DNA of 61,744 nucleotides from Candidatus Limnocylindria bacterium (GCA_030146365.1 JASLBU010000234.1:1-61744), one strand, 5' to 3'. Counted from the first letter of the stretch, positions 6,954 through 61,726 are shown. Notes: a model not told the origin generated them from the letters alone. Program-made: numbers and translations.

Positions 6954-8249
6954 TCACTGGAGGCCGCGATGCAGGAACGCCGTCATCTGGCCGCGTGTGA
7001 CCGGCGCCCGCGGACAGAACCGGTCGCTCGCGCATCCGGCCGTCACGCCCGCCGCCGCGATGCGGTTGATGTCGGCCTCATGCGCCGACGCGTCGTCATC
7101 GCTGAAGAAGTCCCTCGCCTCGGGGGGCAGATCAAGCGCTCGGGCCAGGAAGCTGGCCATCTGTTCGCGCGTCACCATCCCGCGTGGGCAGAAGCGACCC
7201 GGGCCGCAGCCGGCGCTGATGCCGGCCTCCGCAACGCGGTTGATGTCACCCTGGTGCGACGATCCGCTGTCATCACTGAAGTAGTCCCCCGTAGCTGCCG
7301 GAAGCCGCAGCGCGCGGGCAAGGAAGCTGGCCATCTGTTCGCGCGTGACCGGGTTGCTCGTGCAGAACAGGTTCGGAGCGCAGCCGACGGTGATGCCCTC
7401 CTGGTACGCCCAGGCAATGTCGCTCCTGAAGATCGAGGACTCGATGTCGTTGATACAGGTGCGGCCGTTGCCCTCCACGGTCACCGCCGACGACGATCCG
7501 ATGCGCACCCGGGCCCAGGCGCACTGGTTGGTGTCGTCCGATTCCGAGAAGAATCCGTACGGATCCACGGTGGCACGAACGTAGTACGTGCCCGCCGGCA
7601 CGTTGGTGATGTCGACCCACTGCCACGCCAGGTAGTACTCGTACTGGTCGCCCCATCCCACGCTGATCCCCATCCGGTTGCTGAGCGCGCCAGAACTCGT
7701 CCCGCACATCGTGCCGCGGTAGTACGACCCGTTGTAGCCGGGGAGCGATGTGGCCCACGGGTGCGAGTCGAGGAAGCAGAAGCCGACCTTCGCACCGCGG
7801 AAGGTGCCACTGCTCCCCCACATGTCGTATCGCATCATCTCGTTGACGTGCCAGTGGTCGTGCCCGTCACCGGCGTACGATGCGACCGCATCGGTCAGCG
7901 CCTGGTGAACGACCGGTGCCGTGCGCGACGTGCTGTCGTAGAAGACCTGCGTCATCTGCATGGGCGACGAGGTGTCGGGTCGGCTCCCGCGAAGCTCGAA
8001 GTGCCCCTGCCCCACGTTGACCATCATGGCCGTGAAGCGGAGTAACCGGCGACCGTTGACGACCTCGATCCTGAAGTCCCGGAGCGGGGACATGGCGAGG
8101 TCAGGCTGCAGGCCAGCGCTCGCCTGAGCCGGAGACGCGGTAGCGAAGCTGGCCCCGCCCGCGACCATCACGCCGAGGAGGTAGACAAGGACAAGAACGG
8201 GGACGCCACGCCTCGGGGAAGCTCCGCGGCGTGGCCGCCCGGGTCGCAT
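6954..8249 (-). CDS. Secreted lysyl-oxidase-like copper amine oxidase fused to a 3x SLH-like C-terminal module
   Basis: A signal peptide precedes the catalytic domain. GDGHDHWHV is an HxHxH Cu site. GAKVGFCFLDS aligns with animal LOX GHKASFCLEDT, which holds the LTQ lysine. GDQYEYYLAWQWVDITNVPAGTYY aligns with DTY..CQWIDITDV.PGNY, which holds the LTQ tyrosine. The last 164 aa are three SLH-like repeats. Confidence 0.85.
   Translation of the reverse strand: MRPGRPRRGASPRRGVPVLVLVYLLGVMVAGGASFATASPAQASAGLQPDLAMSPLRDFRIEVVNGRRLLRFTAMMVNVGQGHFELRGSRPDTSSPMQMTQVFYDSTSRTAPVVHQALTDAVASYAGDGHDHWHVNEMMRYDMWGSSGTFRGAKVGFCFLDSHPWATSLPGYNGSYYRGTMCGTSSGALSNRMGISVGWGDQYEYYLAWQWVDITNVPAGTYYVRATVDPYGFFSESDDTNQCAWARVRIGSSSAVTVEGNGRTCINDIESSIFRSDIAWAYQEGITVGCAPNLFCTSNPVTREQMASFLARALRLPAATGDYFSDDSGSSHQGDINRVAEAGISAGCGPGRFCPRGMVTREQMASFLARALDLPPEARDFFSDDDASAHEADINRIAAAGVTAGCASDRFCPRAPVTRGQMTAFLHRGLQ
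6957..7448 (-). repeat. 3x SLH-like repeat module (Cys-pair variant) at the C-terminus of the LOX-like protein
   Basis: The repeats contain [36 protein letters not shown] and GCASDRFC..VTRGQMTAFL. The period is about 174 bp. Confidence 0.8.
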
Positions 8250-9931
8250 CAGTCGAGCCCGCGCTTCAAAAAGGCGGCCATCTGACCGCGAGTGACCAGC
8301 GCGCTCGGGCAGTACCGGTCTGTGCCGCAGCCACCGGTGATCCCCGACTTCGCCAACGCGTTGATGGAGTTCTCGTGGAGGTTGCCCTCATCGTCGGTGA
8401 AGTAGTCGGTGGTCGTCGACGACAGCTTCAGGGCCCGTACCAGGAAGCTGGCCATCTGTGCACGGGTGACGTTCGCTCGAGGACAGAAGCGAGCGGTGTC
8501 ACAGCCTCCCGTGACGCCCGCCGCGGCGAGCCGGTTGATGTCGCCCTCGTGCGGGGAGGAGTCGTCATCGGTGAAGAAGTCCCGCGTGGTGCCCGGCAGC
8601 TTCAGCGCACGGGCCAGGAAGCTGGCCATCTGCTCTCGGGTGACCGTCCCGGTGGGACAGAACTTGCCGCCACCGCAGCCGCCCGTGATGCCCGCGTAGT
8701 ACAGCCACAGGATCTCGTTGTAGAAGCTGCTGTTCGTGATGTCGGTGAACGGGGGTGCAACGACCCGATACAGGCGCCCGCCGTGATCGGTCATGTACAC
8801 CTCGCCGTTCTCGGCCTCGCCGAAGGACGTGATGTTCGCACTGGTATCTCGGTGGAAGAGAAGCGAGCTTCCACCGGCTGCGATGGTCCAGATCCGCCCC
8901 GAGCAGTAGTCACCGAGCACGTAGTGCCCGACGAAGTCCTCCTGGATGGAGCCGCGGTACACGTAGCCACCAGTCACGGCACAGTTGCCGTCAGTGTGGG
9001 TGCCGTACTCGGCGATGGGATCGGTGAATACCTTGCCACTGCATGAAATTCCAGGCGATGGGTCAGTGAACGGATGCGTGCCCTCGCGACAGTCCCAGCC
9101 GTAGTTGCGCCCGCCGCTGGCCGGGGGTTCCCGGTTGATCTCTTCCCAGTTGCCCTGACCGACATCCGCGATCCACAGGTGTCCGGTGGAACGGTCGAAG
9201 CTGGCACGCCACGGGTTCCGCAGGCCCATGTCCCAGACCAGGCCGCCCAGGGGGTTGCCGGGTGTCGTATAGCCGCCGTTCAGGTTCGGTGCGATCCGCA
9301 GCACCTTGCCGAGGGTGATGTCCGGATCCTGCCCGTTCTCATCGGGATCGCCACCGCCGCCGCCGTCGCCGGTGAAGATGTACAGGTAGCCATCCGGGCC
9401 GAAGAGCAGTTGGCCGCCGTTGTGGTTCGAGCGGGCGCTGTGCTCGATGACCAGGATGGGATCGTACGTGGACACCGACGCGCTGGTACCGGCGCCATTT
9501 GCCGTGAATTCGGCGATCACGAGGTCGCCGCCGCCGTTCGTGAAATAGGCGAATACCTTGCGGTTCGACTCGAAAGCGGGGTGGAATGCCAGTCCGAGCA
9601 ATCCCCGTTCCCCGCCGGTGGACAGGCCAGCCGATACGCTGCGGATGTCCAGGAAATTGCCCGCCAGGAGGCGATTGTTCTGGACGACCCGGACGGTCCC
9701 GCCCTGCTCCACCACGAATAGGCGGTTCGTTCCGTCGCCCGCGTTCGTGACGCCGATCGGCTGCACGAGCCCGGACACCGTCAGCTGGATATCGACCTGC
9801 CCGCCCGTGAACGCAGCCTCGCCCGCGCGGGAAGCCTGGGGCGCGGGGGTCGTCGGCAGAGCTGCCGCTGGAGCCGTCGTGGTGAGGACCAGGACCAGCG
9901 TCCCGATCATCGCAGTGAGCTTCCGCATCAT
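8249..9931 (-). CDS. Secreted PQQ-dependent (soluble glucose/sorbosone dehydrogenase-type) beta-propeller fused to a 3x SLH-like module
   Basis: The start MMRKLTAMIG is preceded by GAGGAG and followed by a signal peptide. The motifs NRLFVVEQGG.VRVV, ERGLLGLAFHP, NHNGGQLLFGPDGYLYI.TGDGG, GLRNPWR.SFD and LWIADVGQ..WEEIN match this family. The stop overlaps the LOX start by 1 nt (TGATG). Confidence 0.85.
   Translation of the reverse strand: MMRKLTAMIGTLVLVLTTTAPAAALPTTPAPQASRAGEAAFTGGQVDIQLTVSGLVQPIGVTNAGDGTNRLFVVEQGGTVRVVQNNRLLAGNFLDIRSVSAGLSTGGERGLLGLAFHPAFESNRKVFAYFTNGGGDLVIAEFTANGAGTSASVSTYDPILVIEHSARSNHNGGQLLFGPDGYLYIFTGDGGGGGDPDENGQDPDITLGKVLRIAPNLNGGYTTPGNPLGGLVWDMGLRNPWRASFDRSTGHLWIADVGQGNWEEINREPPASGGRNYGWDCREGTHPFTDPSPGISCSGKVFTDPIAEYGTHTDGNCAVTGGYVYRGSIQEDFVGHYVLGDYCSGRIWTIAAGGSSLLFHRDTSANITSFGEAENGEVYMTDHGGRLYRVVAPPFTDITNSSFYNEILWLYYAGITGGCGGGKFCPTGTVTREQMASFLARALKLPGTTRDFFTDDDSSPHEGDINRLAAAGVTGGCDTARFCPRANVTRAQMASFLVRALKLSSTTTDYFTDDEGNLHENSINALAKSGITGGCGTDRYCPSALVTRGQMAAFLKRGLD
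8252..8749 (-). repeat. 3x SLH-like repeat module (Cys-pair variant)
   Basis: The repeats contain [36 protein letters not shown] and GCGTDRYC..VTRGQMAAFL. Confidence 0.8.
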
Positions 9932-10028: not shown

Positions 10029-11210
10029 TCACTGGGTCCCGGGCACCCGTACGATCCGACCATACGCCTCCAGCAGCGCTGCCGCTGAAGTCGACCAGTT
10101 GTACTCGCGCTCGACGGCACGCCGCCCTTTCAGTCCCATCGCGCCCGCGGTCGCGGGATCGTCGAGAAGGCGACGAACGGCACTCGCGATCTCCGCCGGG
10201 TTCGCGGTGTCGACCACGACCCCCGCGCCCGACCCCACGACCACGTCTCGGACCTGCGGGAAATCGCTGGCGACCACCGGGATTGCGGCCGCCATGTACT
10301 GAAACAGCTTGTTCGGCAGGGAGTAGCGGTAGTTCAGGCAGGACGGGACGATCGGGGAGACGCCGATGTCCGCCGACCTCGCGTACCCCACCACCTCGTC
10401 CGGTGGCACGGGGCCGACGATGTGGACCCGGTCGGCGCTCCCGGTGGCCTCCGCCAGCGCGAGGAGGTCGTCGGCGAGATGCCCCGCACCGAGCAACACG
10501 AGATGGGCGCCATCGATCGATGCCATGGCACGCACCAGGAACTCGATCCCTCGCCCGCCCATCAAGCCGCCCAGGTACAGCACGATGGGCCTGTCCGCCG
10601 GCAATGTCTCGAGGCCGGGACGCCCGCGGAGCTCGAACCGCCTGTCGTCGCCTGGCTGGTCCGGATAGTTCGGGACGAGGTGCACCACGGGGAGGCGGTA
10701 CGTCACGGCCAGGTGCTCCGCGATGGGACGACTCACGGTCAGTGTGGCCCGCGCGCGTGGCACGGCAATCCGCTCGATCACCCCGTAGTACCCGTTCTGT
10801 GCGCGGTGATAGAGCTCCGAGCGCTGTCGTCTCGGGCGATGCAGCCACAAATCGTGCGCGTCATACACGAATGGAGCACCCGTCCAACGAGAGGCAAGCG
10901 CGACCGGGACGAGCGCGTTCGAGTCATGAGCATGGAGCAGATCCGGGCGGAGGCTGCGAAGGATGCGCGCCAGCCGAACCTCATGCGCCACGAACGAGAT
11001 GCCCGGGATGCGAGGCCCTCGGCGCTCGACCCGGCGCACGCTGGTGCCGCTGCGCTCCTCCACAAGCGGGAGCCCCCGGCCCGCATCTGCCACGACGGTG
11101 ACCCGGTACCCGGCGTCGCGCAACGTGGCGGCCTCCTTCTCGACCCGGGAGTCGTGGGTGTACGGGTTGCGGACCAGCATCACGACGTGCACCGCCCGAG
11201 CCTCAGCCAT
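10029..11210 (-). CDS. Glycosyltransferase family 4 (GT-B)
   Basis: The N-terminus VHVVMLVRNPYTHDSRVEKEAATLRDAGYRVTVV matches the Glyco_trans_4-like type. The C-terminal GT1/GT4 core is YRYSLPNKLFQYMAAAIPVVASD. The ATG at 11210 overlaps the upstream stop by 8 nt. Confidence 0.8.
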   Translation of the reverse strand: MAEARAVHVVMLVRNPYTHDSRVEKEAATLRDAGYRVTVVADAGRGLPLVEERSGTSVRRVERRGPRIPGISFVAHEVRLARILRSLRPDLLHAHDSNALVPVALASRWTGAPFVYDAHDLWLHRPRRQRSELYHRAQNGYYGVIERIAVPRARATLTVSRPIAEHLAVTYRLPVVHLVPNYPDQPGDDRRFELRGRPGLETLPADRPIVLYLGGLMGGRGIEFLVRAMASIDGAHLVLLGAGHLADDLLALAEATGSADRVHIVGPVPPDEVVGYARSADIGVSPIVPSCLNYRYSLPNKLFQYMAAAIPVVASDFPQVRDVVVGSGAGVVVDTANPAEIASAVRRLLDDPATAGAMGLKGRRAVEREYNWSTSAAALLEAYGRIVRVPGTQ

Positions 11211-13248
11211 CCGACCGTCCCGAGGCGCCCGCGAGGACCGCCGCCCACGTCTCGGCCATGTCAGCCTGCCAGCGCTCCAGGCTGAACCGCTCGACCGTGT
11301 GCGATATCTCGACGGGGTCGTAGTCCGGGACTCGGGCGAGGGCACCGGCGAAGTCGCCATCCGAAACCAGCGTGCCGTTCACGCCATCCTGGACGATCTC
11401 GACGAGGCCCCCGACCGAGTTCGCCACGACCCAGCGACCGCTGGCGATGGCTTCGACCGCCACCAGCCCGAAGGCCTCGGTCAGCGATGGAACCAACACG
11501 ACGTCGTGGGCTGCCATGAGCGCGGGCACGTCCGCGTACTCGACCTCGCGCAGGCCCGGACCGATCAGGGTGTCGGCCAGGTCGCGGGCTGCCTGGTATC
11601 CCTTGTGGGAGACATTCCCGCCCATGTACAGGACCCGTCGCTCAGTCGGCCGGGCGGTCGGCCGAAAGCGAGAGAGGTCGGTACCCGGAACGATCACGTG
11701 CGGCGCGACGCCGATGGGCCGCAGCAGGTCGGCTGTGTGCTCCGAGTTGGTGATGACAGCGGCGCTGGACTGCACCACGAGGCGGGATAGCGAGCGCAGG
11801 ACCGCCGACTGTTCGACATAGCTGCGCACGTCCCGGCCGTGTGAGTACACGACCAGCGGCACCCGACGGGCTCGCGCGGCGATGAGTCCGACGAGGCCGG
11901 TCGGGAGGATCATGTGCGCCTCGACGCCGTCGATCCCGGCTGACCGACGCAGCGCATCCCAGAGCAGGACCGCATAGAGCAACGGCCGCGGCATCCCCTC
12001 GCGACGCGGCTTCACCACGCGCATCCCGGCCACGCCGAGTGTGCGTTCGCGGACGAACGTGCCGACGCCGGGCCGTTCGGTGGTGGGCCAAAGGCGCGTG
12101 ACCAATGCGATCTGGGGATATTCGGAGGCCCGGCCGGGATAGGCTCGGACGAGGCGCCGCGCGGCATCCGCCCACCGAAACCGATCCTGCAGCGAGCGTA
12201 GATCGGCGCGCACGGCCGCGTTGTGCTTCGGGTCACGCAGCCGCGCGATTCCCTCGTCCAGGGAGTCGTCGTCGACGAACACTTCTCCGATCCGGTGACG
12301 AGCACTGACCGCGGACAACTCGCCCTGGGCACGGAAGACGAGCGGCACGCTGTTCGAGATCGCGATGTACAGGTTGTTCGGCGCGGCGTGAGCGGCATAG
12401 GGATGGTCGGGCTTGAGGGCGTAGTACAGCGCATCAGCCGCGGCGAACAGCTCGGTCGTGTCAGCGACCCAGCCGAGCAGACGCACGTTCGGGATGCGTG
12501 CGGTGGCCTCGCGAAGCGCTGCCTCTGCATCGCCAGAACCCGCGATGAGAACGATGTCCTCCGGATGACGCCTGGCGTGCCGGATGAGGGGGTCGAGATC
12601 GCGCGAGCCGATGAGGCCGCCCGCGTAGACGACACAGAACTGGCCGCCCAACTCGAGCGACGCCCGGGCGCGTTCGCGATCAACGGTTCTCCGTGGGGCA
12701 TCCACCCAGTTGGGGACCGCCACGGAGCGGATTCCTCGAGCCTCGAAGTACGCCCGGCGGTCCTCGCCCGGCGTGATGACGAGATCCGCGAACCGCGGCA
12801 GGTAGCGCTCGGTGACGCGGATGACGGCGACGAGCCAACGCGGGTAGCGGTGAACGCCCATGAGCGCGTGGATCTCGAATGCGTCGTAGACGATTGCCGG
12901 CCGCCGCCCCGGAAGCATGGGTGCCAGTGCCAGTGCCACGATGAGCATGGGCAGGTCGACCGCGTGGATGACGCGCGGCGGGTCCGACCGCATGAGACGA
13001 AGGAATTCCCGCGCGACGCGGAACAGGAAGAAGATCTGGGTCCAGCCCCGGCTGGGACGGCTGAGCACGCGGATGCGATGGACGTGAATCGGCCCGTCCT
13101 CCGCCTCCTCGGGCCGCTCCCCGCTCCGGTCCCAGGCGAGGACCCGTGGCCGATATCCCGCCTCCGCGAGCGCGTAGCCCGTTCGCCTGACCCGCAGATC
13201 GGGGTCATAGGCCTTGGCGAGCAGGAAGTCGACGCGAGCTCCGCTCAT
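11203..13248 (-). CDS. Two-module glycosyltransferase (two GT-B/GT4-like halves in one 681-aa protein)
   Basis: The N-terminal half starts like the neighbouring GT4s (DPDLRVRRTGYALAEAGYRPRVL). The C-terminal half has VVYSHGRDV and the E-x7-E-type motif PSLTEAFGLVAVEAIASGRWVVA. Confidence 0.8.
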   Translation of the reverse strand: MSGARVDFLLAKAYDPDLRVRRTGYALAEAGYRPRVLAWDRSGERPEEAEDGPIHVHRIRVLSRPSRGWTQIFFLFRVAREFLRLMRSDPPRVIHAVDLPMLIVALALAPMLPGRRPAIVYDAFEIHALMGVHRYPRWLVAVIRVTERYLPRFADLVITPGEDRRAYFEARGIRSVAVPNWVDAPRRTVDRERARASLELGGQFCVVYAGGLIGSRDLDPLIRHARRHPEDIVLIAGSGDAEAALREATARIPNVRLLGWVADTTELFAAADALYYALKPDHPYAAHAAPNNLYIAISNSVPLVFRAQGELSAVSARHRIGEVFVDDDSLDEGIARLRDPKHNAAVRADLRSLQDRFRWADAARRLVRAYPGRASEYPQIALVTRLWPTTERPGVGTFVRERTLGVAGMRVVKPRREGMPRPLLYAVLLWDALRRSAGIDGVEAHMILPTGLVGLIAARARRVPLVVYSHGRDVRSYVEQSAVLRSLSRLVVQSSAAVITNSEHTADLLRPIGVAPHVIVPGTDLSRFRPTARPTERRVLYMGGNVSHKGYQAARDLADTLIGPGLREVEYADVPALMAAHDVVLVPSLTEAFGLVAVEAIASGRWVVANSVGGLVEIVQDGVNGTLVSDGDFAGALARVPDYDPVEISHTVERFSLERWQADMAETWAAVLAGASGRSDG

Positions 13249-14342
13249 TGCCCCGTCCCCGCAGTGAGGATCGCCGTGGCGAGGGAGTCTCTCTGCTCAC
13301 GCATGGCGGCCAGGCGACGACCGACCTCGGACCGACGCCCTTCGGACGCCGCCTCCGAGAGGCGCTCCAGCAGAACCGCCGCGCTGATGTCGGGGAGGCC
13401 GACCACCAGGTCGCCCAGGCCTAGCTGCTCCGCTGCGGCACGCACCTTCTCATCGTAGGCAATCGGCACGACGGGCACGCCTGCCAGCGCCGCGAGCAGC
13501 AGACCGTGCAGTCGCACGGTGATGACACCCGACAGCCTGGCGAGTCGCCCCAGCGCGTCAGCCGGGGTAGGACCCAGGGCCGCAATCGCGAGCGGACGCG
13601 ACCCCTCCGCCATGGCTGCAGCTCGCAGCCGCTCCGTGAACCCGACGTCCGCGCCCCCGCCCATGGTGAGCAGGACCGGCGACCGCCCGACGCCCTCGAG
13701 CATCCGGACGGTGTCGAGGATGACCTCGACCAGGCGGGGCTCTATGGGGGCGTCGGCGCGCGTGGGACCGCGGACGATCAGGCCGACGCCGCCGTCGGCC
13801 CGACGGCCGGGCGGGACGTTGAAGACCGATGGGTCGGGGACGACGCGGGACTGCGACCTGCTTCCCAGCACGCTGGCGCTTGCGGAATCACGCACCGTCA
13901 CGACATGAGCGAACCGGGCCCCGATGCGCGCCAACCAGGCGAGCGTGCGCCGGCGAACCGGCCCGACGCCGACGCCGATCCAGGCCACCTTGGCCCCGGC
14001 CAACCTGGCCGCCAGTGTCCAGCCGACATAGCGAGGGATGACTCCGATCCAGTGGTCGTTGAAGATGCCGCCTCCCGTGAGGAGCAGCATGTCGACTCGG
14101 CGCAGCGCGCGCCATGCACGCGGCGTGGGCAGGTGGCGACTGGCGACCACTCGTTCGGCATCCGGGAACGCCGCCACGGTGGCGGGCAATGGCCCGCTGA
14201 AGACGGTCGTCACCTCGACGTCTCGTTCACGGAGCAGCGCCTCGATCCCGGTGAGAATCGCCTCGTCACCGATGTTTCCGAAGCCCTGGAAGCCCACCGT
14301 GGCGACGCGCAGGGGCCGGTGGCGACGCCCCAACGGGCTCAC
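13245..14342 (-). CDS. csaB: Polysaccharide pyruvyl transferase, CsaB family
   Basis: VATVGFQGFGNIGDEAILTGIEALL, DMLLLTGGGIFNDHW, AWIGVGVGPV and the C-terminal VRLHGLLLAALAGVPVVPIAYDEKV match the PS_pyruv_trans/CsaB pattern. The GTG at 14342 forms a GTGA overlap with the epimerase stop. The longer ORF-track N-extension overlaps that gene. Confidence 0.8.
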   Translation of the reverse strand: MSPLGRRHRPLRVATVGFQGFGNIGDEAILTGIEALLRERDVEVTTVFSGPLPATVAAFPDAERVVASRHLPTPRAWRALRRVDMLLLTGGGIFNDHWIGVIPRYVGWTLAARLAGAKVAWIGVGVGPVRRRTLAWLARIGARFAHVVTVRDSASASVLGSRSQSRVVPDPSVFNVPPGRRADGGVGLIVRGPTRADAPIEPRLVEVILDTVRMLEGVGRSPVLLTMGGGADVGFTERLRAAAMAEGSRPLAIAALGPTPADALGRLARLSGVITVRLHGLLLAALAGVPVVPIAYDEKVRAAAEQLGLGDLVVGLPDISAAVLLERLSEAASEGRRSEVGRRLAAMREQRDSLATAILTAGTGQ

Positions 14343-15460
14343 GCGACGCGCGCCTCCCGGGCGAGGATGTCCACGATTCGGTCGGCGGCGTGTCCGTCGC
14401 CGTAGATGTCCCTGCCCGCTCGAGCCATGGCATCGAGCTCCGCCGGCTCGTCGAGAAGCCGGGTGACGGTCGTTCGAACCAGCTCCGCATCGGTTCCGAC
14501 GATGCGGACGGCACCGGCGTCCACCCCCTCGGGCCGCTCCGTGGTAGTCCTCGTGACGAGAACCGGCGTGCCCAGCGTCGGTGCCTCCTCCTGCACCCCG
14601 CCGGAGTCCGAGACCGCCAGCCGAGCGCCGGCGAGCAGCGACAGGAAGGTGGGATACGGCAGGGCGTCGACGACCATCGCTCGCTGCTCGTCCCCGAGGA
14701 TCGCCTGGACGGGGCCGCGTGCGATCGGGTTGGGATGCGTTGCGAACACCAGGCGCAGGTCCTCGTTCGCCGCAAGCACGCCGCGCAGGGCAGTCGCCAC
14801 GGAGGCGATGCCGCCGTCCCATGATTCCCGCCGATGGGCGGTGGCAAGCAGGTAGGGCTTGTCGCCGATGAACGTCGCAAACGGCTCCCCAAGGTCCGAT
14901 CGACCGGGATTGATGTAACCCAGCGCGTCGACCACCGTGTTGCCCACGACGTGGACGCCGGCGGCCACCCCCTCCCGACGCAGGTTGTCGGCGGATCGCT
15001 CGGTCGGTGCGAAGTGCCAGGTGGCGATCGCCGATGCCACCCGTCGGTTCATCTCCTCCGGAAACGGGTGTCCCATGTCGTGGGAGCGCAGGCCCGCCTC
15101 GACGTGCCCGACCGGGGCGCCGTGGTGGAAGGCGGCGAGGACCGAGCCGAGCACGCTGGTCGTGTCTCCCTGCACGACGACGGCGCGCGGTCGTCGCTCC
15201 CCCAGCAGCTCCCCGACGCGCCGCACCGCCCGCGCCAGAAGTTCATCAAGGGTCTGGCCAGGTCGCATGAGCCCGAGATCAGCGTCCGGCTGGATCGCGA
15301 ACAGCTCGAGCACGTCGCGCACCATGGCGCCGTGCTGGCCCGTCGTCACGACGATGTGCGGAAGATCGGCGCGGCGCATGGCGATCACGACGGGCGCCAG
15401 CTTTATCGCCTCGGGGCGGGTGCCGAGCAGCACGGCAACGGGCGCGACGGGGGTCGGCAT
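14339..15460 (-). CDS. wecB: UDP-N-acetylglucosamine 2-epimerase (non-hydrolysing; MnaA/WecB)
   Basis: VAVLLGTRPEAIKLAPV, VVTTGQH, VVVQGDTTSVL and GHVEAGLRS......PFPEEMNRR are diagnostic. Confidence 0.9.
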   Translation of the reverse strand: MPTPVAPVAVLLGTRPEAIKLAPVVIAMRRADLPHIVVTTGQHGAMVRDVLELFAIQPDADLGLMRPGQTLDELLARAVRRVGELLGERRPRAVVVQGDTTSVLGSVLAAFHHGAPVGHVEAGLRSHDMGHPFPEEMNRRVASAIATWHFAPTERSADNLRREGVAAGVHVVGNTVVDALGYINPGRSDLGEPFATFIGDKPYLLATAHRRESWDGGIASVATALRGVLAANEDLRLVFATHPNPIARGPVQAILGDEQRAMVVDALPYPTFLSLLAGARLAVSDSGGVQEEAPTLGTPVLVTRTTTERPEGVDAGAVRIVGTDAELVRTTVTRLLDEPAELDAMARAGRDIYGDGHAADRIVDILAREARVA

Positions 15461-15468
15461 GGTTGGCG

Positions 15469-15474: not shown

Positions 15475-15543
15475 GGGAGCACCACGACTCACGGACCGCG
15501 GGTCCCCCCGACCGGTGACGGGCCGTACGACCGCGGTCGGCAG

Positions 15544-24915: not shown

Positions 24916-24917
24916 CA

Positions 24918-38096: not shown

Positions 38097-38105
38097 TGCT
38101 AGAAT
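38097..38105 (+). promoter_or_regulatory. Candidate extended -10 promoter (TGcTAGAAT) for the LCP gene
   Basis: It lies 32 nt upstream of the ATG at 38138, in a 236-bp divergent intergenic region. GGTGAG lies immediately before the ATG. Confidence 0.35.
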
Positions 38106-38137
38106 CCCCGCTCTTCCCCCACGTAGCAACCGGTGAG

Positions 38138-51475: not shown

Positions 51476-52587
51476 GATGCGGTTGCCTCCTGTGCATTGG
51501 TCGCACCAGCGGCAGTGTGGTGCTGTTCGAGTGCCGCGACGATCCGGGTCGCAGCACAGCCGTCACCGTACAACTCCGGTCGGGGCCGGGAGCGATCGAG
51601 GAAAGCGGGGTCGGCGAGGGCCGCGCGCAGTGCGGCCGGATCGTCGTCCACCACGCGGTTCCAGCCGGCGTCGACCGTCTCGACCCACTCGGTCTCGGAG
51701 CGGAGGGTCACGCACGGCACGCCGGAAAGGTACGCCTCCTTCTGCACTCCGCCCGAGTCGGTGGCGATGACGTGGGCCCGCGCCTCGAGCGCCACCATCT
51801 GCAGGAACCCCACGGGGTCGATGGCGATGACATTGATCGGGAGGCCGTGGAGGCCTCGCTCGAGAATCCCACGCGTCCGCGGATGGACGGGAAAGATGAT
51901 CGGCAGGTCGACTTCCAGGCCCGACAGGATCCGGCGGAAGCGCTCCGGGTGGTCGACGTTCTCCGCACGATGGATGGTCAGAAGCACGTACGGAGCGTGC
52001 CTGCGCGCGATGTCCGGGAGGTGCGCATCAGCCCGCGCCGCGGCCCAGGCGTGCGCATCGACCATCACGTCGCCGACCAGCTTTGCCCGCTCGCCGAGGC
52101 CCTCCCGGCGCAGGTGCCCCATGGCCGTCGCGGTCGGCGCCAGGGCGAGATCGGCAAGGTGGTCCACTGCCACGCGATTCCGCTCCTCAGGCATGCGGCG
52201 GTTGAACGACCGCAGGCCGGCCTCGACGTGCGCCAACCAGGGGCGTCGCCCACCCGGGTAGGCCAGCTTGGCGGCGACCAGCGCGGCGGCGAGCGTCGAA
52301 TTGGTGTCGCCGAAGACGACCACGCCATCCGGCTCGTGCTCCAGCACGACCGGCTCCAGTCGCTGGAGCATCTGTCCGGTCATGGACCCGTGCGACCCGC
52401 TCCCGACCTCCAGGTTCACGGCAGGCTCCGGGATCTCCAGGTCGCGAAAGAAGTCCCCGCTCATCGACGCGTCGTAGTGCTGGCCGGTGTGGACCAGGAT
52501 CTCGGCATGTGACGTGCGAAGCGCCCGGCTGACGGGGGCGGCCTTGACGAACTGCGGCCGCGCTCCGACCACTGTCATCACCTTCAC
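51472..52587 (-). CDS. wbpI: UDP-N-acetylhexosamine(uronate) 2-epimerase (WbpI/WecB-like)
   Basis: MTVVGARPQFVKAAPV, VHTGQHYD, VVVFGDTNSTLA and HVEAGLRSFNRRMPEE are present. The start is either the GTG at 52587 (GTGA overlap) or the ATG at 52578. Confidence 0.85.
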   Translation of the reverse strand: MKVMTVVGARPQFVKAAPVSRALRTSHAEILVHTGQHYDASMSGDFFRDLEIPEPAVNLEVGSGSHGSMTGQMLQRLEPVVLEHEPDGVVVFGDTNSTLAAALVAAKLAYPGGRRPWLAHVEAGLRSFNRRMPEERNRVAVDHLADLALAPTATAMGHLRREGLGERAKLVGDVMVDAHAWAAARADAHLPDIARRHAPYVLLTIHRAENVDHPERFRRILSGLEVDLPIIFPVHPRTRGILERGLHGLPINVIAIDPVGFLQMVALEARAHVIATDSGGVQKEAYLSGVPCVTLRSETEWVETVDAGWNRVVDDDPAALRAALADPAFLDRSRPRPELYGDGCAATRIVAALEQHHTAAGATNAQEATAS

Positions 52588-53180
52588 CCGGGCACGCCTG
52601 GCGGGAAGGCCGCACCACAACGCGGGCATGCCCCGACGTACTCACCGCCGTCAGCGTCGCGAAGCGGCTGGCCACACGAACAGACGCTGCCGAGCCGTCG
52701 CGCCGGGTTGCCGGCCACGAGTTGGTGTGCGGCGACGTCGCGCGTGACGACGCTTCCCGAGCCGACCATCGCCCACTGGCCGATCGTGACGCCCGGGAGG
52801 ATCGTGGCGTTCGCCCCGAGCGCGGCGCCGTAGCGGATGACGATCGGCGACACCTCCCAGTCGGCATCGACCTTGAGGGTACCGTCCGGGTTGATGGCCC
52901 GCGGAACGCGGTCATTGGTAAAGCACACGTGCGGGCCGACGAACACGCCGTTCTCGATCGTCACACCGCGAAACACGCTGACGTTGTTCTGAATCTTGAC
53001 GTCGTCTCCGATGACCACGTCCACGTCGATATATGCATTCTTTCCGACGATGCAGCGGGCGCCGATGCTGGCGCGCTCGCGCACCTGGGCCTGGTTCCAG
53101 ATGCTGGTGCCGGGACCGATGCGCGCCTCGGGCGATACGTCGGCCGTGGAGTGGATGCGCACCGCCGCACGCTCAGTCAT
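52584..53180 (-). CDS. wbpD: Left-handed beta-helix N-acetyltransferase (WbpD-like) with a Cys4 C-terminal tail
   Basis: The hexapeptide repeats IGPGTSIWNQAQVRERASIGARCIVGKNAYIDVDVVIGDDVKIQNNVSVFRGVTIENGVFVGP fit the family. AAGGAG lies 6 nt upstream of the ATG at 53180. The tail is CSCGQPLRDADGGEYVGACPRC. Confidence 0.85.
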   Translation of the reverse strand: MTERAAVRIHSTADVSPEARIGPGTSIWNQAQVRERASIGARCIVGKNAYIDVDVVIGDDVKIQNNVSVFRGVTIENGVFVGPHVCFTNDRVPRAINPDGTLKVDADWEVSPIVIRYGAALGANATILPGVTIGQWAMVGSGSVVTRDVAAHQLVAGNPARRLGSVCSCGQPLRDADGGEYVGACPRCGAAFPPGVPG

Positions 53181-54735: not shown

Positions 54736-57225
54736 TCAGTCGCCGAGCGCGCGGTGCAGGAATGCCGCCATCTGCTCGCGCGTGATGGTCATCTTCGGGC
54801 AGTACGTCGTCGCGCTGCAGCCGCCGGTGATGCCGGCGTGCGCCAGGCGATTGATATCCGCCTCGTGCGGGCTCCCGGCGTCATCGGTGAAGTAATCCCG
54901 CGGCGCCGTGGGCAGCTGCAGCGCGCGAGACAGGAAGCTGGCCATCTGTTCGCGGGTCACTGCCCCACGGGGACAGAAACGGCCCGGAGCACAGCCGCCG
55001 GTGATAGCCGAGCCGGCCAATCGGTTGATGTCCGCCTGGTGCGGGCTGGCGGAGTCGTCGGTGAAGTAGTCCGCGGTCGTCAGCGGGAGGGCAAGGGCTC
55101 GGCCGAGGAAGCTGGCCATCTGCTCGCGGGTCACGGTTGCCTGCGGGCAGAACTCGTCGGTGGCGCAGCCGGCGGTGATGCCGGTCTCCGCCAGCCAGGC
55201 GATGTCATATTCGAAGGAAGAACCGATGGTGTCAGAGAAGCCGCTGATTCCGGTGGTGAAGGTCCAGGACGTCGGGCTGACCGCGTTCCCGGCCGTGTCG
55301 CGGACGGCAGCGGTGACCTCGACGCGGTGGAGGCGCTCTGCCGCGAGCTTGGTGCCGATCGTCAGCGTGGCCTGCCGGCGGCTGGCGTCGTATGTCACGG
55401 TGGCGGGAGCCACCGCATTCGTGGCCATGTCGCGCACCAGAATGGTGCTCGTCGAGACGTTGGTGACCGGTTCGTCGAACCCGACGACAACCGCGCCGAA
55501 CCGGCTCACGTTCAGCGCGCCGGGTGCTGGGAGGCGAGACGTGACCGTGGGCGCGACGGTGTCGACGTAGCTCGGTGTGATCGAGTAGGGCGACCGGCTC
55601 CCATTGGCGTAGAAGTTGATGACTCGCACCAGGAGGCGGGTCGGTCCGCTGACGGCGTGCTGAGCGAGCTCGACGCCCGACTCCCATTCGTTGTCCACCC
55701 GCTTGATCAGGGTGCCATTGGTGGTGTAGAGCTCCACGATGGGGTCGACCGGCAGGGAGCTCTGGCGCCAGGTCCAGTCGAGCGTCTCGACCACGCCGGT
55801 CACCCGGACGTCCAGTCGTCCGGCCCGCGGCACATCGACCGCGAACACGTCGGCGTCGCCGGCCGGGTAGATCGTCGGCAGGGTGGCGGTCTCGAGCGGA
55901 ATCCACCGCGCGGCGTCGAGGCTGTCGTTGGTCTCGAGGCCGTCCCCCGCCGGACGGGGCGAGGCGGCGACGCTGGCGCCGAGGGCTCGGTACGCGTTGA
56001 CGCGGCCGCGTCCATATCGATTATCAAAGCCGGTGTAGCCGAGATCGTCGACGGTGGCGTACAGCCGATCCACCACCTGCTGCGGCGTCCAGGCCGGATT
56101 CCTGGCGCGGATGAGCGCAACGACGCCGGCCACATTTGGCGTCGCGAACGACGTTCCGCTGATGTAGGTGTGCGAACCCCACGACGCATGCGGACAGCTG
56201 CTCGCGATGCAGTTCGTCGTGAGGACCGATGAGCCCGGGGCGCTGACGTCGACCGCCGGCCCATAGCTGGACCAGTGGCTGAACTCGTCCCGCGGCTGAG
56301 TCGCGCTGACGCTGATGACATGATTGAGGCTCGCCGGGTAGAAGCTCTCCTCCCGGTTGTTGTTGCCGGCCGCACCGACGAGGACGGCCCCCTTGTTCCA
56401 GGCGTAGGTCACCGCGTCCTGGACGGCCTGGCTGTACGGGAATCCGCCCACGCTCATGTTGATCACGGTGGCGCCGTTATCGGCCGCCCAGATGATCCCG
56501 TTCACGAGGGCCGACGTGGAGCCGGTGCCGGAGCTGTTCATGATCTTCACCGGCAGGATCTTGTCGGACCAGCTGATGCCGGCGATGCCGTAGCCGTCGT
56601 CCGGCTTGGCCGCGATGATGCCGGCCACCCAGGTGCCGTGGCCGTTGTCGTCCGCAGCGTTCAAGTCGCCGTTGACGAAGTCGCGGCCGGGCAGGACGCG
56701 TCCGGAGAGGTCGGGATGGTCGGGCTGGACGCCCGTATCCAGCACGGCGACTTTCCCCGCTCCGCCCTTCGACAGCGACCACGCATCCCGCACGCGCATG
56801 CGGTCGAGCGAGTACTGGCCCTCGGTCTGCGGATCGTTCACGCCCACGGCGGCCACCGCGCCGTCATTGATGACGCGGACCACGTAGCTCGGCTCCGCGT
56901 AGTCGACCCCGGGGTCGGCACGAAGCTCGGCGAGCACCTGGTCGACCGGGCGACCACCGGTCGTTGCGGCCACCGGGAGCCCGACACCCTGTGGCCCCGC
57001 CGGGGCGGCGATCGCGAGGCCGCGCGCCCGCGCGGCATCGCCGGCCGTGGCGCCGTCGCGGAACTTGACGATCACCTCGCCCGGGACCACCTCGGCAGCC
57101 TCGTGCACCACGGGAGGCGCATCGGCCTCGGCGGGAGGGGCAGGCTTGGGTCCATCGGCCGCGACCGGCAGTACGCCGGCGAGCAGGAGAAGAAAGGCGA
57201 GGAGAGTCGAGAGGGCTCGGGACAC
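54736..57225 (-). CDS. Secreted subtilisin-like S8 protease with I9 propeptide, PPC domain, Ig-like (SbsA/Big_5-like) domain and a 3x SLH-like module
   Basis: The catalytic triad lies in VAVLDTGV, GHGTWVAGIIAA and GTSFATPNVAGVVAL. The PPC-like region is YPAGDADVFAVDV. The Ig-like region is DTVAPTVTSRLPAPGALNVS....VVGFDEPV. The GTG at 57225 is preceded by GGAG and gives a signal peptide. Confidence 0.85.
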   Translation of the reverse strand: MSRALSTLLAFLLLLAGVLPVAADGPKPAPPAEADAPPVVHEAAEVVPGEVIVKFRDGATAGDAARARGLAIAAPAGPQGVGLPVAATTGGRPVDQVLAELRADPGVDYAEPSYVVRVINDGAVAAVGVNDPQTEGQYSLDRMRVRDAWSLSKGGAGKVAVLDTGVQPDHPDLSGRVLPGRDFVNGDLNAADDNGHGTWVAGIIAAKPDDGYGIAGISWSDKILPVKIMNSSGTGSTSALVNGIIWAADNGATVINMSVGGFPYSQAVQDAVTYAWNKGAVLVGAAGNNNREESFYPASLNHVISVSATQPRDEFSHWSSYGPAVDVSAPGSSVLTTNCIASSCPHASWGSHTYISGTSFATPNVAGVVALIRARNPAWTPQQVVDRLYATVDDLGYTGFDNRYGRGRVNAYRALGASVAASPRPAGDGLETNDSLDAARWIPLETATLPTIYPAGDADVFAVDVPRAGRLDVRVTGVVETLDWTWRQSSLPVDPIVELYTTNGTLIKRVDNEWESGVELAQHAVSGPTRLLVRVINFYANGSRSPYSITPSYVDTVAPTVTSRLPAPGALNVSRFGAVVVGFDEPVTNVSTSTILVRDMATNAVAPATVTYDASRRQATLTIGTKLAAERLHRVEVTAAVRDTAGNAVSPTSWTFTTGISGFSDTIGSSFEYDIAWLAETGITAGCATDEFCPQATVTREQMASFLGRALALPLTTADYFTDDSASPHQADINRLAGSAITGGCAPGRFCPRGAVTREQMASFLSRALQLPTAPRDYFTDDAGSPHEADINRLAHAGITGGCSATTYCPKMTITREQMAAFLHRALGD
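54739..55239 (-). repeat. 3x SLH-like repeat module (Cys-pair variant)
   Basis: The repeats contain [36 protein letters not shown] and GCSATTYC..ITREQMAAFL. Confidence 0.8.
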
Positions 57226-58720: not shown

Positions 58721-59725
58721 CTACCCGCCGAACGCGCGCTCGAGGAAGCCGGCCATCTGCTCCCGGGTCACGGGCGAATTCGGGCAGAACTGTCCGGCTG
58801 AGCAACCGCCGGTGATTCCGGCGGCGGCGAGGGAGTTGACGGCTCCCTCGTGCGTGGTCCCGTTGTCATCCCAGAAGTAGTCTCGGGCCGAGACCGGCAG
58901 GCTCAACGTCCGCGCCAGGAAGCTTGCCATCTGGCCGCGCGTCACCGTGCTGGTCGGGCAGTAGCGGGCGTCGGTGCACCCCACGGCGATCTTCGCCGCG
59001 GCGATGCCGTTGATGTCGGCTCGGTGCATTGACGATGAAACGTCGGTGAACCATCCGCTCGACTGCGCCGGCAGGCCGGTCACGCGGCGGAGGAAGCTGG
59101 CCATCTGCTCGCGCGTGACGGCTGCCCTGGGGCAGAACTTGCTGGCGGTGCAGCCCGCGGTGACCTCGTTGGTGACGAGCCAGCCGATCTCCGCCTTGAA
59201 TGCAGACAGACCGATGTCCGTGAAGCCGCTCGTGGTGGTCGTGTCGCTCGTTCCGCAGAGTTCGGCGAAGATCATGGCCCCGTAGTGCCGAGACTCCGGC
59301 CCCGGTGAAGTGCTTCCGCCCGCGTGCGTGTATCCGTCGCCGAGCATGATCTCGCGATGCGAGGTCGACTTGAACCATTGCTCGCCGAAGCGAGTGATCG
59401 AGCCTGTCCCGTTGTAGGCGATGATCTCGCCGAAGGTTCGCCAGCAGACGCCCGAGGCGTTGAGCCGGGCCCCGATCAGGTCGAGGTCATGCGCCATATG
59501 GTCGGCCTCCGCCATGGCGTTCGAGCGCTCGACGGCAATGGCCTCCAGGACGGCGTTCGCCCCGACCGGAGGAACCTCGGCCGCGCCGCGATACTGGTTC
59601 GTCACCGCGAGAAACTCGGCATTGCCCGCCGCCCGCACCGGCGCGGCAACGCTGGGGAGGATGAGCGCGGCCAGGAGCGCGGCAGCGAGCATCGGGGTGA
59701 AACCATGGTGCAGGACGCGGAACAT
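58721..59725 (-). CDS. Secreted CAP/SCP (PR-1-like, YkwD-type) domain protein with a 3x SLH-like module
   Basis: A signal peptide is followed by [14 protein letters not shown]...[20 protein letters not shown]...GEIIAYNG...[14 protein letters not shown], a CAP pattern. The last 167 aa are the SLH-like module. Confidence 0.8.
58724..59224 (-). repeat. 3x SLH-like repeat module (Cys-pair variant)
   Basis: The repeats contain [36 protein letters not shown] and [18 protein letters not shown]. Confidence 0.8.
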
Positions 59726-59839: not shown

Positions 59840-61726
59840 TCAGCGTGTCAGTCCGCGATGAAGGAAGGCAGCCATCTGCTCGCGCGTGACGCTCGCCCGT
59901 GGGCAGAACGTGCTCGTCCCACATCCACCGGTGATGCCGGAAGCCGCCAGACGGTTGATGTCACCCTGATGGCCACTGGCGGCATCGTCACTGAAGTAGT
60001 CGGTCCCGGTCGTCGGAAGAGCCAGGGCCCGTGCCAGGAAGCTCGCCATCTGCTCACGGGTGACCGTGGCCCTCGGGCAGAAGCTGCCGGGCCCGCAGCC
60101 TCCGGTGATACCCGAGGCCGCTAGCCGATTGATGTCGCCCTGGTGAGCGCTGCCCGCATCATCGGTGAAATAGTCGGTCGCGGTGGCGGGCAGCTTCAGA
60201 GCCCGGACCAGGAAGCTCGCCATCTGTTCGCGGGTGACCACACCCTGAGGACAGAAGGTCGTCTGCGAGCAGCCGCCCGTGATCGCCCGGTCCGCGAGCC
60301 AGATGATGTCGAAGACGAACGGCGAATCGGAGATATCGGTGAACGGTAGTGGGCCGAACCGCACGTAGATGGTGTCCCAGAGCTCCGGCCTGGACCCGTC
60401 CATGAGCAGATGCCAGACGCCGATTCCGCGCAGCCCATTGCCCTTCACCATGGCGTACTTGGCGTTGAGCGAGGTCGCATCATCGTAGTAGCCCTGGACC
60501 CAGGTCCCGTACGCGCTGCTCTGGTACCGGTACCACGGAACCTGGCCGGTGGGATCCCACAGCCGACCGTGCTCCCTGACCGCCTCGAGCGCATTGACGT
60601 AGCCCGGCGCCCAGCTGCGGCCGAATGGCTCCGAGGCCGGCTTTGCCGTTGGGCAGATCGTCGATGATCTGCAGGTGAGGGAGTGCGCCGTGCCGGCCTG
60701 TGTGGTCCACGCGCGGCCGTAGTACGGCACGCCCCAGATCAACTTGGACGCGGGGACGATGGCCAGGTGGTCCCGCATCGCTGTGCGCGCGTCGAAGATG
60801 TACGGACTGTCGATGGGCGCCACGCCGCCAGCGCGCGCGGACCCGGACCAGCTGAAGTCATAGGCCATGACCATCAGCGCATCCGCCGCACCCGGTGCGC
60901 TGAGGGCCGCGACGTCGTACCCGGTGCTCCACGACGCGGCACCCGCCATGGTTGCCACGGACACGTACGAGCCGGCGCCCTGTGCCGTCAGCCCGGCCTT
61001 CAGCTCACGGACGAACGTCGTGAACTGCGAGCGCAGACCGGAGGGCACCGGCTCGAAGTCGACGTTGACCCCATCGGCACCCCGCGCCTTGATGGTTGAG
61101 CCGATCTCCTGGATCAGCCTGGCGCGGTTGGTCGAGCTGGCGAGAAGCTCGGTCATCGCCGAATAGTCACCGTTCCACGCCATCATCGTGACGGTCAGCA
61201 CCACGCGGACGCCAAGCTGGTGCGACTTCGTGATGACCCCTGTCATGGCCGACGAGGCCCAGCCGGCCCACTCCGTCGTTGGCACCCCCGTCGCCGTGGT
61301 CTTTGCCAGCGTGCCTGCGCCGGTGGCGCTCACCGCGAAGTAGGCGATCGTGGAGACGTGGTCATACCGCAGGTGCTGCATGCTCGCCGAGCTCAGCGCC
61401 CAGTAGGGCAGGTACCCGAACACCTCGTGGCTGAGTCCATTCGGGAGCGCAACGACGCCGGCCGTCTTCCCATCGCTCAATGACATCGTGCCGCCATCGC
61501 GCCCCGGCAACGAGAGTGGCGGCGGCATGTCGCCTGGCTGGAACTCGTGGCTCTCTCCAGAGCGCTCGAGCAACATCTCAGCGTGGATGCCGGGAGCCAC
61601 GGCCGGCGCATCCGGCGCTGGCTGAGGGCTCGGCGAGGGGTCCGACGCGCGCGCGGGCGTGACGGCCGGCAGAAGGAAGAACAGGGACAGGAGGGCGGCA
61701 AGCGGCCGGACGCGCGGCTTGAACAT
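59840..61726 (-). CDS. Secreted glycoside hydrolase family 18 (chitinase/YaaH-like) protein with a 3x SLH-like module
   Basis: The signal peptide is MFKPRVRPLAALLSLFFLLPAVTPARA. The GH18 catalytic motif GADGVNVDFEPV (DxxDxDxE), MAYDFSW and GVPYYGRAW are present. The last 167 aa are the SLH-like module. Confidence 0.85.
   Translation of the reverse strand: MFKPRVRPLAALLSLFFLLPAVTPARASDPSPSPQPAPDAPAVAPGIHAEMLLERSGESHEFQPGDMPPPLSLPGRDGGTMSLSDGKTAGVVALPNGLSHEVFGYLPYWALSSASMQHLRYDHVSTIAYFAVSATGAGTLAKTTATGVPTTEWAGWASSAMTGVITKSHQLGVRVVLTVTMMAWNGDYSAMTELLASSTNRARLIQEIGSTIKARGADGVNVDFEPVPSGLRSQFTTFVRELKAGLTAQGAGSYVSVATMAGAASWSTGYDVAALSAPGAADALMVMAYDFSWSGSARAGGVAPIDSPYIFDARTAMRDHLAIVPASKLIWGVPYYGRAWTTQAGTAHSLTCRSSTICPTAKPASEPFGRSWAPGYVNALEAVREHGRLWDPTGQVPWYRYQSSAYGTWVQGYYDDATSLNAKYAMVKGNGLRGIGVWHLLMDGSRPELWDTIYVRFGPLPFTDISDSPFVFDIIWLADRAITGGCSQTTFCPQGVVTREQMASFLVRALKLPATATDYFTDDAGSAHQGDINRLAASGITGGCGPGSFCPRATVTREQMASFLARALALPTTGTDYFSDDAASGHQGDINRLAASGITGGCGTSTFCPRASVTREQMAAFLHRGLTR
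59843..60343 (-). repeat. 3x SLH-like repeat module (Cys-pair variant)
   Basis: The repeats contain [36 protein letters not shown] and GCGTSTFC..VTREQMAAFL. Confidence 0.8.

Follow-up and report, generated by a model that had tools for sequence, protein, structure and literature searches.

Xylanases, pullulanases, and the anchoring scaffoldins of cellulosomes in thermophilic clostridia and Thermoanaerobacterium share a triple S-layer homology (SLH) module that sits at the C-terminus of otherwise unrelated hydrolases. The SLH domains of these exoenzymes are of the canonical, cysteine-free type, and their cargo consists mostly of polysaccharide hydrolases. Here we describe the same architecture in Candidatus Limnocylindria (Chloroflexota; formerly Ellin6529), a widespread class of soil and freshwater bacteria. 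The window that we analyzed is a 61,744-nucleotide (nt) stretch from a Candidatus Limnocylindria bacterium (GCA_030146365.1, JASLBU010000234.1:1-61744), and positions are counted from its first letter. Six of its coding sequences (CDS) carry a triple SLH module with a pair of cysteines in every repeat, and the same stretch encodes genes for wall-polymer synthesis. We consider it likely that the six pseudo-trimeric modules are non-covalent anchors that bind a pyruvylated, N-acetylmannosamine (ManNAc)-containing secondary cell-wall polymer (SCWP) made by genes of the window. The domain, its fold, its architecture, and its gene partners are textbook, and the anchoring system is a known one found in a new lineage. 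What is apparently new is the lineage itself, the uncultured Limnocylindria, and a Cys-pair subtype of the domain that is shared with Acidimicrobiia.

In the Firmicutes, the corresponding gene toolkit makes the pyruvylated ManNAc epitope that is bound by SLH trimers (PMC6081394). In the numbering of PROSITE and of P. alvei SpaA, the GIIxG motif spans SLH-25 to 29 and the TRAE motif SLH-42 to 45 (PMC6081394). Gly29 and Arg43 contact the pyruvate carboxylate in SpaA, and the Gly29 backbone flips upon ligand binding; the loop from SLH-27 to 37 lines the groove and is conformationally variable in SpaA SLH1, and in SpaA SLH3 a functional pyruvate-binding motif reads TRAQ (PMC6081394).

Translations and a six-frame motif scan showed exactly 18 repeats in the window, three in each of six CDS, and a hidden Markov model (HMM) built from these 18 repeats returned exactly 18 domains over all six frames. 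This was the count reported by a first-pass annotation of the stretch. The modules belong to a lysyl-oxidase-like (LOX) protein (6957-7454), a glucose/sorbosone-dehydrogenase-like (GSDH) protein (8252-8749), a C5-epimerase-like protein (42330-42830), a subtilase of family S8 (54739-55239), a CAP/SCP-family protein (58724-59224), and a GH18 chitinase-like protein (59843-60343). Counted from the F/I/M-x-D start through repeat 3, each module is 167 amino acids (aa) long. The repeat period is 58 aa, not the ~57 aa first proposed, since corresponding Cys of successive repeats are spaced by exactly 58 aa in every one of the six proteins. Five modules form the extreme C-terminus and the one in the C5-epimerase-like protein is followed by a tail, as had been annotated from the translations. 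G-C-x5-C was present in 18 of 18 repeats as claimed, but the Pro said to follow it in every copy was found in 17, the exception being LOX repeat 1 (GCAPNLFCT). The annotation was right that 17 of 18 repeats carry TR[EGA]Q and that C5-epimerase repeat 3 has SRGQ. It had also assigned an F[TS]D opening to the first repeat of every module, and this held for four of the six, while the LOX module opens with IND and the C5-epimerase module with MTD.

To place the repeats in a family, we compared them with profile and structure databases. Pfam SLH (PF00395) matched all six proteins at 50.8-80.3 bits (gathering score 20.8), and 17 of the 18 repeats matched it in isolation at E<=0.01 (best 4.3e-10). 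The earlier description of the repeats as "SLH-like" had therefore recognized the kinship but understated it: they are bona fide SLH domains, full members of a catalogued family (PF00395 / PROSITE PS51272), and their homologues are already named "S-layer homology domain-containing protein" at NCBI. The only NCBIfam match of the module was to the triple-SLH tail of a Bacillus NEAT/LRR protein. The whole triple aligned end to end with B. anthracis Sap (3PYW, 6BT4) and with SbsB (4AQ1) at E ~1e-7.

An AlphaFold2 model was built for the GH18 module only (window 59843-60343) from a 68-sequence alignment. The model reached a predicted local distance difference test (pLDDT) value of 97.7 and a predicted template modeling (pTM) score of 0.90 and showed six helices, two per repeat. 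In a Foldseek search against the PDB, the top 15 matches were all SLH trimers; 3PYW matched with a template modeling (TM) score of 0.87 and a root-mean-square deviation of 2.3 Angstrom, 6BT4 with a TM score of 0.85, and the SpaA-SLH structures with 0.74-0.79. The module is thus predicted to adopt the three-prong, pseudo-threefold spindle of SLH trimers, the fold that the first reading of the sequence had anticipated.

The repeats aligned to the SLH numbering without gaps from Gly25 to Thr42, which puts Cys1 at SLH-30, Cys2 at SLH-36, and the Pro at SLH-37. Cys1 directly follows Gly29, and the pair brackets SLH-30 to 36 within the groove-lining loop, in agreement with the earlier proposal that the cysteines lie in the loop shaping the ligand groove (SLH-27 to 37; PMC6081394). 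Gly29, Arg43, and Gln45 were invariant columns in 18 of 18 repeats. Gly25 was less conserved and was replaced by A, E, or K in five repeats. Since Gly29 and Arg43 are kept in every repeat, all three grooves of a module could be ligand-competent. The replacement of TRAE by TRxQ had been put forward as a systematic trait of these repeats; it is systematic but not new, given the TRAQ of SpaA SLH3.

The cysteines were conserved in homologues. Among 976 repeats from 391 homologues, both Cys were present in 963, neither in 11, and one in 2 (one of these 2 being a fragment). An HMM count over 632 kb gave both Cys in 426 of 437 domains, and the exceptions were truncated fragments save for one protein (P0158, at two loci) that lacks both. 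The inter-Cys loop was x5, x6, x7, x8, x9, or x10, with both Cys kept throughout. One relative (P0143) has a single GCNPAGDRYCP repeat followed by three GDANGDYNP repeats that have neither Cys, and coupled loss was also seen in P0158 (GYPDGTYDP) and in P0132 (GTGPNTFSP). The total number of Cys was even in all six window proteins (10, 10, 10, 8, 8, and 8, with 4, 4, 4, 2, 2, and 2 in the cargo), and among relatives an even count was also found in 64 of the 73 cargo regions that contain Cys (binomial p ~1e-11, a value that ignores shared ancestry). This parity, the i to i+6 spacing, and the high pLDDT of the loop give indirect support for a disulfide. Taken with the coupled conservation of the pair, the indirect evidence is consistent and fairly strong, and Cys30 and Cys36 most likely form an intradomain disulfide after export that closes and stiffens the groove-lining loop. 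In the literature on SLH with cysteine or disulfide, and on Chloroflexota or Limnocylindria, we found no description of a Cys-containing SLH domain. The Cys-pair subtype is sharply conserved and apparently undescribed.

We then determined the range of the module among relatives. A scan with one genome per species recovered >504 relatives, almost all in metagenome-assembled genomes (MAGs) labelled Candidatus Limnocylindria, Chloroflexota, or uncultured Chloroflexia; every relative came from a MAG or a metagenome contig. The GC content of the window is ~69%, and that of the class Limnocylindria is 68.9% (PMC10608941). The window was syntenic with one Limnocylindria MAG (loci L001 and L019), with 94% identity for RNase PH, 80% for the S8-SLH protein, and 71-74% for the GH18-SLH and CAP-SLH proteins. 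Searched against representatives of 50%-identity clusters, a profile of the module matched 126,095 clusters at E<=1e-3, of which 7,828 reached E<=1e-30. With the same profile and database size, the canonical Sap triple scored 2e-10 and the window modules 3e-75 to 5e-86, so that several thousand clusters are far closer to the Cys subtype than classical SLH is.

All 83 complete related open reading frames (ORFs) were Pfam-SLH positive, and their cargo included S8 (17), GH18 (11), GSDH (10), CAP (6), LOX (5), VanY, M14, and phosphoesterase domains. Of 105 complete ORFs, 87 had the module at the C-terminus, and the spacing between repeats was exactly 58 aa in 175 of 198 cases. The varied cargo and the mostly C-terminal position indicate that the Cys-type triple SLH serves as the general wall anchor of the secretome of this lineage. 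At four loci (L034, L065, L069, and L070) 245-304 residues follow the last repeat in ORFs of 415-474 aa, which places the module near the N-terminus, as in Sap. Giant surface proteins with Cys-type SLH, mostly of the x7 form, were also found: P0125 (2852 aa; six x7 repeats detected), P0128 (2205 aa; four x7 repeats detected), and P0205 (3352 aa). P0128 (locus L088) lies on a 4.57-Mb contig and has Pfam SWM_repeat and Cadherin-like repeats.

The Cys pair was not confined to Limnocylindria, although the first-pass annotation had raised the possibility that it was lineage-specific. A sister subtype in which the loop has eight residues (GCNPPxNDRFCP) was recurrent in NCBI MAG proteins labelled Acidimicrobiia or Actinobacteria, with both Cys in 271 of 271 repeats; the range beyond Chloroflexota rests on these NCBI MAG labels. 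Cys-type SLH was also seen in contigs assigned to Steroidobacteraceae MAGs (L017, L018, and L029), to Ca. Angelobacter (L038 and L062), and to a Myxococcota MAG (P0264). Some of these proteins have gene neighbours of Limnocylindria type, for example an RNase PH of 88% identity in L038. The isolated Steroidobacteraceae, Angelobacter, and Myxococcota labels probably reflect mistakes in the binning or labelling of public MAGs.

The window is a cell-envelope glycopolymer island with the classical SLH/pyruvylated-wall-polymer toolkit. Its CsaB/WecB wall-polymer cluster, which the first-pass annotation did not mention, is the strongest functional evidence for the anchoring role. Genes were assigned by Pfam and NCBIfam, overlapping ORFs were settled by Pfam matches, and a few small ORFs were left unannotated. 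On the minus strand, the order from 15460 down to 6954 is wecB, csaB-like, double GT4, GT4, GSDH-SLH, and LOX-SLH. The CsaB-like polysaccharide pyruvyl transferase (13245..14342, minus strand) matched Pfam PS_pyruv_trans (PF04230) at 93 bits (cutoff 25.3), and its only NCBIfam match was TIGR03609 S_layer_CsaB (E 2.5e-36, positions 2-290/301). On these matches it is the probable source of the pyruvate ketal of the SLH ligand. The adjacent gene encodes a WecB/MnaA non-hydrolysing UDP-GlcNAc 2-epimerase (14339..15460, minus strand; TIGR00236 wecB 386 bits, cutoff 210; Pfam Epimerase_2 3.3e-96). The csaB-like gene, with a likely GTG start at 14342, shares 4 nt with the end of wecB (GTGA, 14339-14342), and this overlap suggests translational coupling of UDP-ManNAc supply with pyruvylation. 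Two GT4 genes, 10029-11360 and the double GT4 11203-13248 (together 10029..13248, minus strand; Pfam Glyco_trans_1_4, Glyco_transf_4, and Glyco_trans_4_4), separate csaB from the GSDH-SLH and LOX-SLH genes. The wecB-csaB-GT4 order recurred in four independent metagenome contigs (L080, L083, L084, and L085) with a CsaB identity of 40-65%. The double GT4 also followed csaB in metagenome loci, and in the 15-kb contig L085 three Cys-type SLH modules surround wecB-csaB-GT4.

Further genes of the island lie elsewhere in the window. A LytR-CpsA-Psr (LCP) glycopolymer-to-peptidoglycan ligase is encoded at 38096..39619 on the plus strand (Pfam LytR_cpsA_psr 6e-26; TIGR00350 81.5 bits, cutoff 62.3), and a WecA/TagO-like polyprenyl-phosphate GlcNAc-1-phosphate transferase at 39634..40587 on the minus strand (Pfam Glycos_transf_4 6.4e-38; best NCBIfam match ECA_wecA 1.9e-39, below cutoff). 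A group of amino-sugar genes on the minus strand (48059..52629) includes a GFO/IDH/MocA oxidoreductase, a DegT aminotransferase, a UDP-ManNAc-dehydrogenase-like gene (48059-49585; NDP-sugar dehydrogenase 318 bits), and a second WecB (51472-52629; wecB 275 bits, cutoff 210). A complete nonulosonic-acid pathway of the pseudaminic/legionaminic type occupies 22746-28133 on the plus strand, with PseB-like Polysacc_synt_2, DegT aminotransferase, CMP-sugar cytidylyltransferase, GT/GNAT fusion, and NeuB+SAF genes; the nonulosonic acid could decorate the SCWP or a surface glycoprotein. Two Wzx flippases and two Wzy_C proteins are also encoded.

The two Wzy_C (O-antigen ligase/polymerase-like) ORFs are convergent and slightly overlapping, at 15463-17106 on the plus strand and 17059-18711 on the minus strand. 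The plus-strand ORF scored 29.6 bits, below the Pfam gathering score of 31.7; it may not be a real gene, or else it may represent a degenerate paralogue. A wall-anchored D-glucuronyl-C5-epimerase-like enzyme and a UDP-ManNAc-dehydrogenase-like gene occur in one island, which hints at polymer-level epimerization of uronic acid residues in the wall glycan. A single tRNA, tRNA-Pro (TGG; 40614-40690, minus strand), is encoded in the window, between the WecA-like and C5-epimerase-SLH genes. In the minus-strand stretch 31755-34009, a PucR-like ORF (31755-33269) and a ResB-like ORF (32762-34009) overlap by ~500 nt on the same strand, and at least one start or frame is mis-called. A cupredoxin is also encoded in the window.

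The six cargo domains belong to different Pfam families, and in this the first-pass description of unrelated enzymes was accurate. On the minus strand, the LOX protein (6954..8249; Pfam Lysyl_oxidase 3.2e-14, SLH 1.6e-17 in three stretches) has its Cys pairs at aa 290/296, 348/354, and 406/412, and the GSDH protein (8249..9931; Pfam GSDH 1.1e-33, SLH 9.6e-23 in three stretches) at aa 419/425, 477/483, and 535/541. The C5-epimerase-like protein (40797..43148, plus strand; Pfam C5-epim_C 2.7e-26, SLH 1.6e-13) has pairs at aa 536/542, 594/600, and 652/658. Its translation continues after the module in a 105-aa Pro/Thr/Ser-rich tail (42831-43145, plus strand). The subtilase (54736..57225, minus strand) has a prodomain and a Big_5 domain (Pfam Peptidase_S8 5.4e-58, Big_5 4.2e-16, SLH 3.2e-16) and pairs at aa 687/693, 745/751, and 803/809. 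Also on the minus strand are the CAP protein (58721..59725; Pfam CAP 9.9e-09, SLH 1e-15), with pairs at aa 192/198, 250/256, and 308/314, and the GH18 protein (59840..61726; Pfam Glyco_hydro_18 1.2e-33, SLH 3.9e-19). The LOX and GSDH genes, and likewise the CAP and GH18 genes, are adjacent in tandem.

By inspection, the N-termini of all six proteins showed a basic n-region, a hydrophobic core of at least 12 residues (mean Kyte-Doolittle 2.5-3.1), and AxA-type sites; the LOX protein, with 10 Cys in all, has the hydrophobic core together with AxA motifs. These signal-peptide-like N-termini are in line with the earlier assumption that the modules are extracytoplasmic and not cytoplasmic. None of the four outcomes that the first-pass annotation had named as counting against its reading was seen. 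A PMT_2-family protein O-mannosyltransferase-like gene lies at the window start (116-1267, plus strand). The Pro/Thr/Ser-rich tail of the C5-epimerase-like protein could serve as an O-glycosylated spacer. Amid the secreted-protein genes, a gene at 45448-47232 (minus strand) encodes a PrsA/SurA-like extracytoplasmic foldase of 594 aa that has a weakly SurA_N-like N-terminus and three PPIC-type rotamase domains. Short-range Cys pairs were also seen in the cargo, with C-x5-C-P in GH18 (aa 352-358) and C-x4-C in S8 (339-344) and in the C5-epimerase (301-306). The secreted proteins of this organism may commonly contain small disulfide loops.

The anchoring system that we propose would operate as follows. 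The six enzymes would be exported via the Sec pathway, C30 and C36 of each repeat would be oxidized to a loop-closing disulfide, and the three repeats are predicted to fold to the three-prong spindle. For the polymer, the gene content is as listed above and the chemistry is what we infer from it. The WecA/TagO-like enzyme would initiate the polymer, WecB/MnaA would supply UDP-ManNAc, the GT4 enzymes would extend the chain, and the CsaB-like enzyme would add the pyruvate ketal; Wzx and Wzy would export and polymerize the product, and LCP would ligate it to peptidoglycan. Arg43 of TR[EGA]Q and the Gly29 backbone would bind the pyruvate ketal in the inter-repeat grooves, as in Sap and SpaA. As an outcome, proteases, glycosidases, oxidoreductases, and a polymer-level epimerase would be held on the wall.

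Several observations weigh against this proposal, and most of them concern the ligand. Trp13, which is conserved in the SLH family and stacks on ManNAc, was absent from 18 of 18 repeats; position 14 holds His in repeats 2 and 3 and Phe in repeat 1, and ligand details may therefore differ. Membership of the SLH family does not strictly depend on this Trp, as the profile and fold tests were passed in its absence. The CsaB-like protein scored 125.5 bits against TIGR03609, below the equivalog cutoff of 213.1; the window yielded no TagA-type ManNAc transferase; and we know of no Limnocylindria isolate with a characterized wall polymer. The nonulosonic-acid cluster provides a second possible anionic ligand. 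The modules might then have the SLH fold but bind another anionic glycan, a nonulosonic acid or N-acetylmannosaminuronic acid (ManNAcA) polymer, and not pyruvyl-ManNAc. This would fit the loss of Trp13, the Gln in place of Glu at position 45 in all 18 repeats, the complete PseB/PseC/cytidylyltransferase/GNAT/NeuB cluster with the UDP-ManNAc-dehydrogenase-like gene, and the low CsaB score. However, the pyruvate-contacting Arg43 and Gly29 are invariant, TRAQ binds pyruvate in SpaA SLH3 (PMC6081394), and the best structural matches include 6BT4, which is Sap with a pyruvylated SCWP unit. The csaB-like and wecB genes are apparently coupled, and their linkage, with Cys-type SLH genes nearby, is conserved in other contigs. 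We regard a change of ligand as unlikely. A bolder proposal, in which the Cys30-Cys36 domains form a phylum-spanning subfamily (Limnocylindria x5, Acidimicrobiia x8) whose Gly29-adjacent disulfide controls binding and makes exoenzyme retention or release redox-dependent, or whose rigid loop and Trp13 loss retune the groove to another glycan, has a similarly small chance of being right.

The disulfide itself has points against it. The bond is strongly suggested rather than observed; the parity statistic takes no account of shared ancestry; and annotation of the window identified no gene for a thiol oxidase such as DsbA or VKOR. The Cys could instead be free thiols, a Cu or Zn site, or partners in inter-repeat or intermolecular bonds. 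The only paper found that links SLH with disulfides, on the SLH-bearing endolysin LysBT1, reports Cys, mostly in the amidase domain, that stabilize the protein but form no disulfides. His14 of repeats 2 and 3 offers a possible third metal ligand, and the cupredoxin and the copper-dependent lysyl-oxidase-like enzyme are encoded nearby. We rejected the metal site. The only conserved His nearby is missing in repeat 1, where Phe14 stands with both Cys in place, and in many repeats of the Acidimicrobiia subtype, where position 14 can be F, H, or Y. Two thiolates alone make a poor site, and a loop of variable length with both Cys kept suits a loop-closing disulfide better than a fixed metal geometry. 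Inter-repeat bonds are unlikely with the three loops on separate lobes of the spindle (fold as in PMC6081394). The pair is lost together, and the even-Cys bias in the cargo points to an oxidizing export compartment. Altogether, a role for the Cys other than an intradomain disulfide seems quite improbable.

The remaining alternative is that the module spread by recent duplication, domain shuffling, or gene conversion and is not a selected anchor. Six copies within 61 kb and the tandem pairs LOX/GSDH and CAP/GH18 might give that impression. In-register modules were 50-68% identical in aa but only 59-68% in nt, 36-54% of identical residues differed in codon, and the longest exact nucleotide run common to modules was 24 nt, which excludes recent duplication and gene conversion. 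The two codon strings quoted in support of this same conclusion by the first-pass annotation do exist (7326-7349, minus strand; 42609-42632, plus strand), and its argument stands. Each of the six proteins also has a 62-81% identical orthologue, module included, in other MAGs, and the position-specific differences between repeats 1, 2, and 3 are common to all six proteins. With this idea refuted, we give it practically no credence; the similarity of the modules is kept up at the protein level.

The window indicates that Limnocylindria displays a broad set of exoenzymes on the wall through the SLH/pyruvylated-polymer system, which is best known from Firmicutes. No description of the Limnocylindria cell envelope was found in the literature. 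The clustering of the polymer genes with several clients offers a concrete starting point for studying this envelope and for identifying the enzymes that work at the surface. With its Cys pair beside the ligand-flipping Gly, the subtype amounts to a natural experiment on how loop flexibility contributes to ligand binding, and expression of the modules would need an oxidizing host.

Compared with the clostridial exoenzymes, the cargo here extends to lysyl-oxidase-like, GSDH, CAP, and C5-epimerase-like domains. The single-SLH tethers of diderm Terrabacteria (OmpM and Deinococcus SlpA; PMC10628300, PMC9388160) belong to the same Pfam family and likewise tie an envelope part to a peptidoglycan-linked polymer. 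However, OmpM and SlpA have one SLH per chain and form trimers via a coiled coil and beta-barrel, whereas the Limnocylindria proteins are soluble enzymes with three SLH on one chain, and the OmpM1 SLH structure 8BZ2 reached a TM score of only 0.18 in the fold search.

A close likeness was seen to the B. anthracis proteins Sap, EA1, and BSLs (3PYW, 6BT4), whose secondary cell-wall polysaccharide is pyruvylated by CsaB. Both systems have the three-SLH spindle (TM 0.85-0.87), Gly29 of GIIxG and a TRAE-type Arg43, one anchor on many surface enzymes, and genes for a UDP-GlcNAc 2-epimerase and a polysaccharide pyruvyl transferase, the one in the window being CsaB-like but below the equivalog cutoff. 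In contrast, sequence identity to Sap is 25-26%, the module is C-terminal here and N-terminal in Sap, and the host is a high-GC Chloroflexota and not a Firmicute; every repeat here has Cys at SLH-30 and SLH-36, lacks Trp13, and has TRxQ for TRAE. The SpaA and SlhA trimers of P. alvei, which bind 4,6-Pyr-beta-D-ManNAc (6CWC-6CWR, 7SV3-7SV6; PMC6081394, PMC8942822), share the fold (TM 0.74-0.79), and SpaA also shares the TRAQ motif (in SLH3) and a post-Gly29 loop that lines the groove; for the P. alvei ligand pathway (TagO, MnaA, and CsaB), the window encodes MnaA and the TagO-like and CsaB-like candidates. One SpaA repeat is degenerate (TVEE), whereas Arg43 and Gly29 are kept in all three repeats here, and the groove loop that is flexible and Cys-free in SpaA is bracketed in Limnocylindria by a conserved Cys pair.

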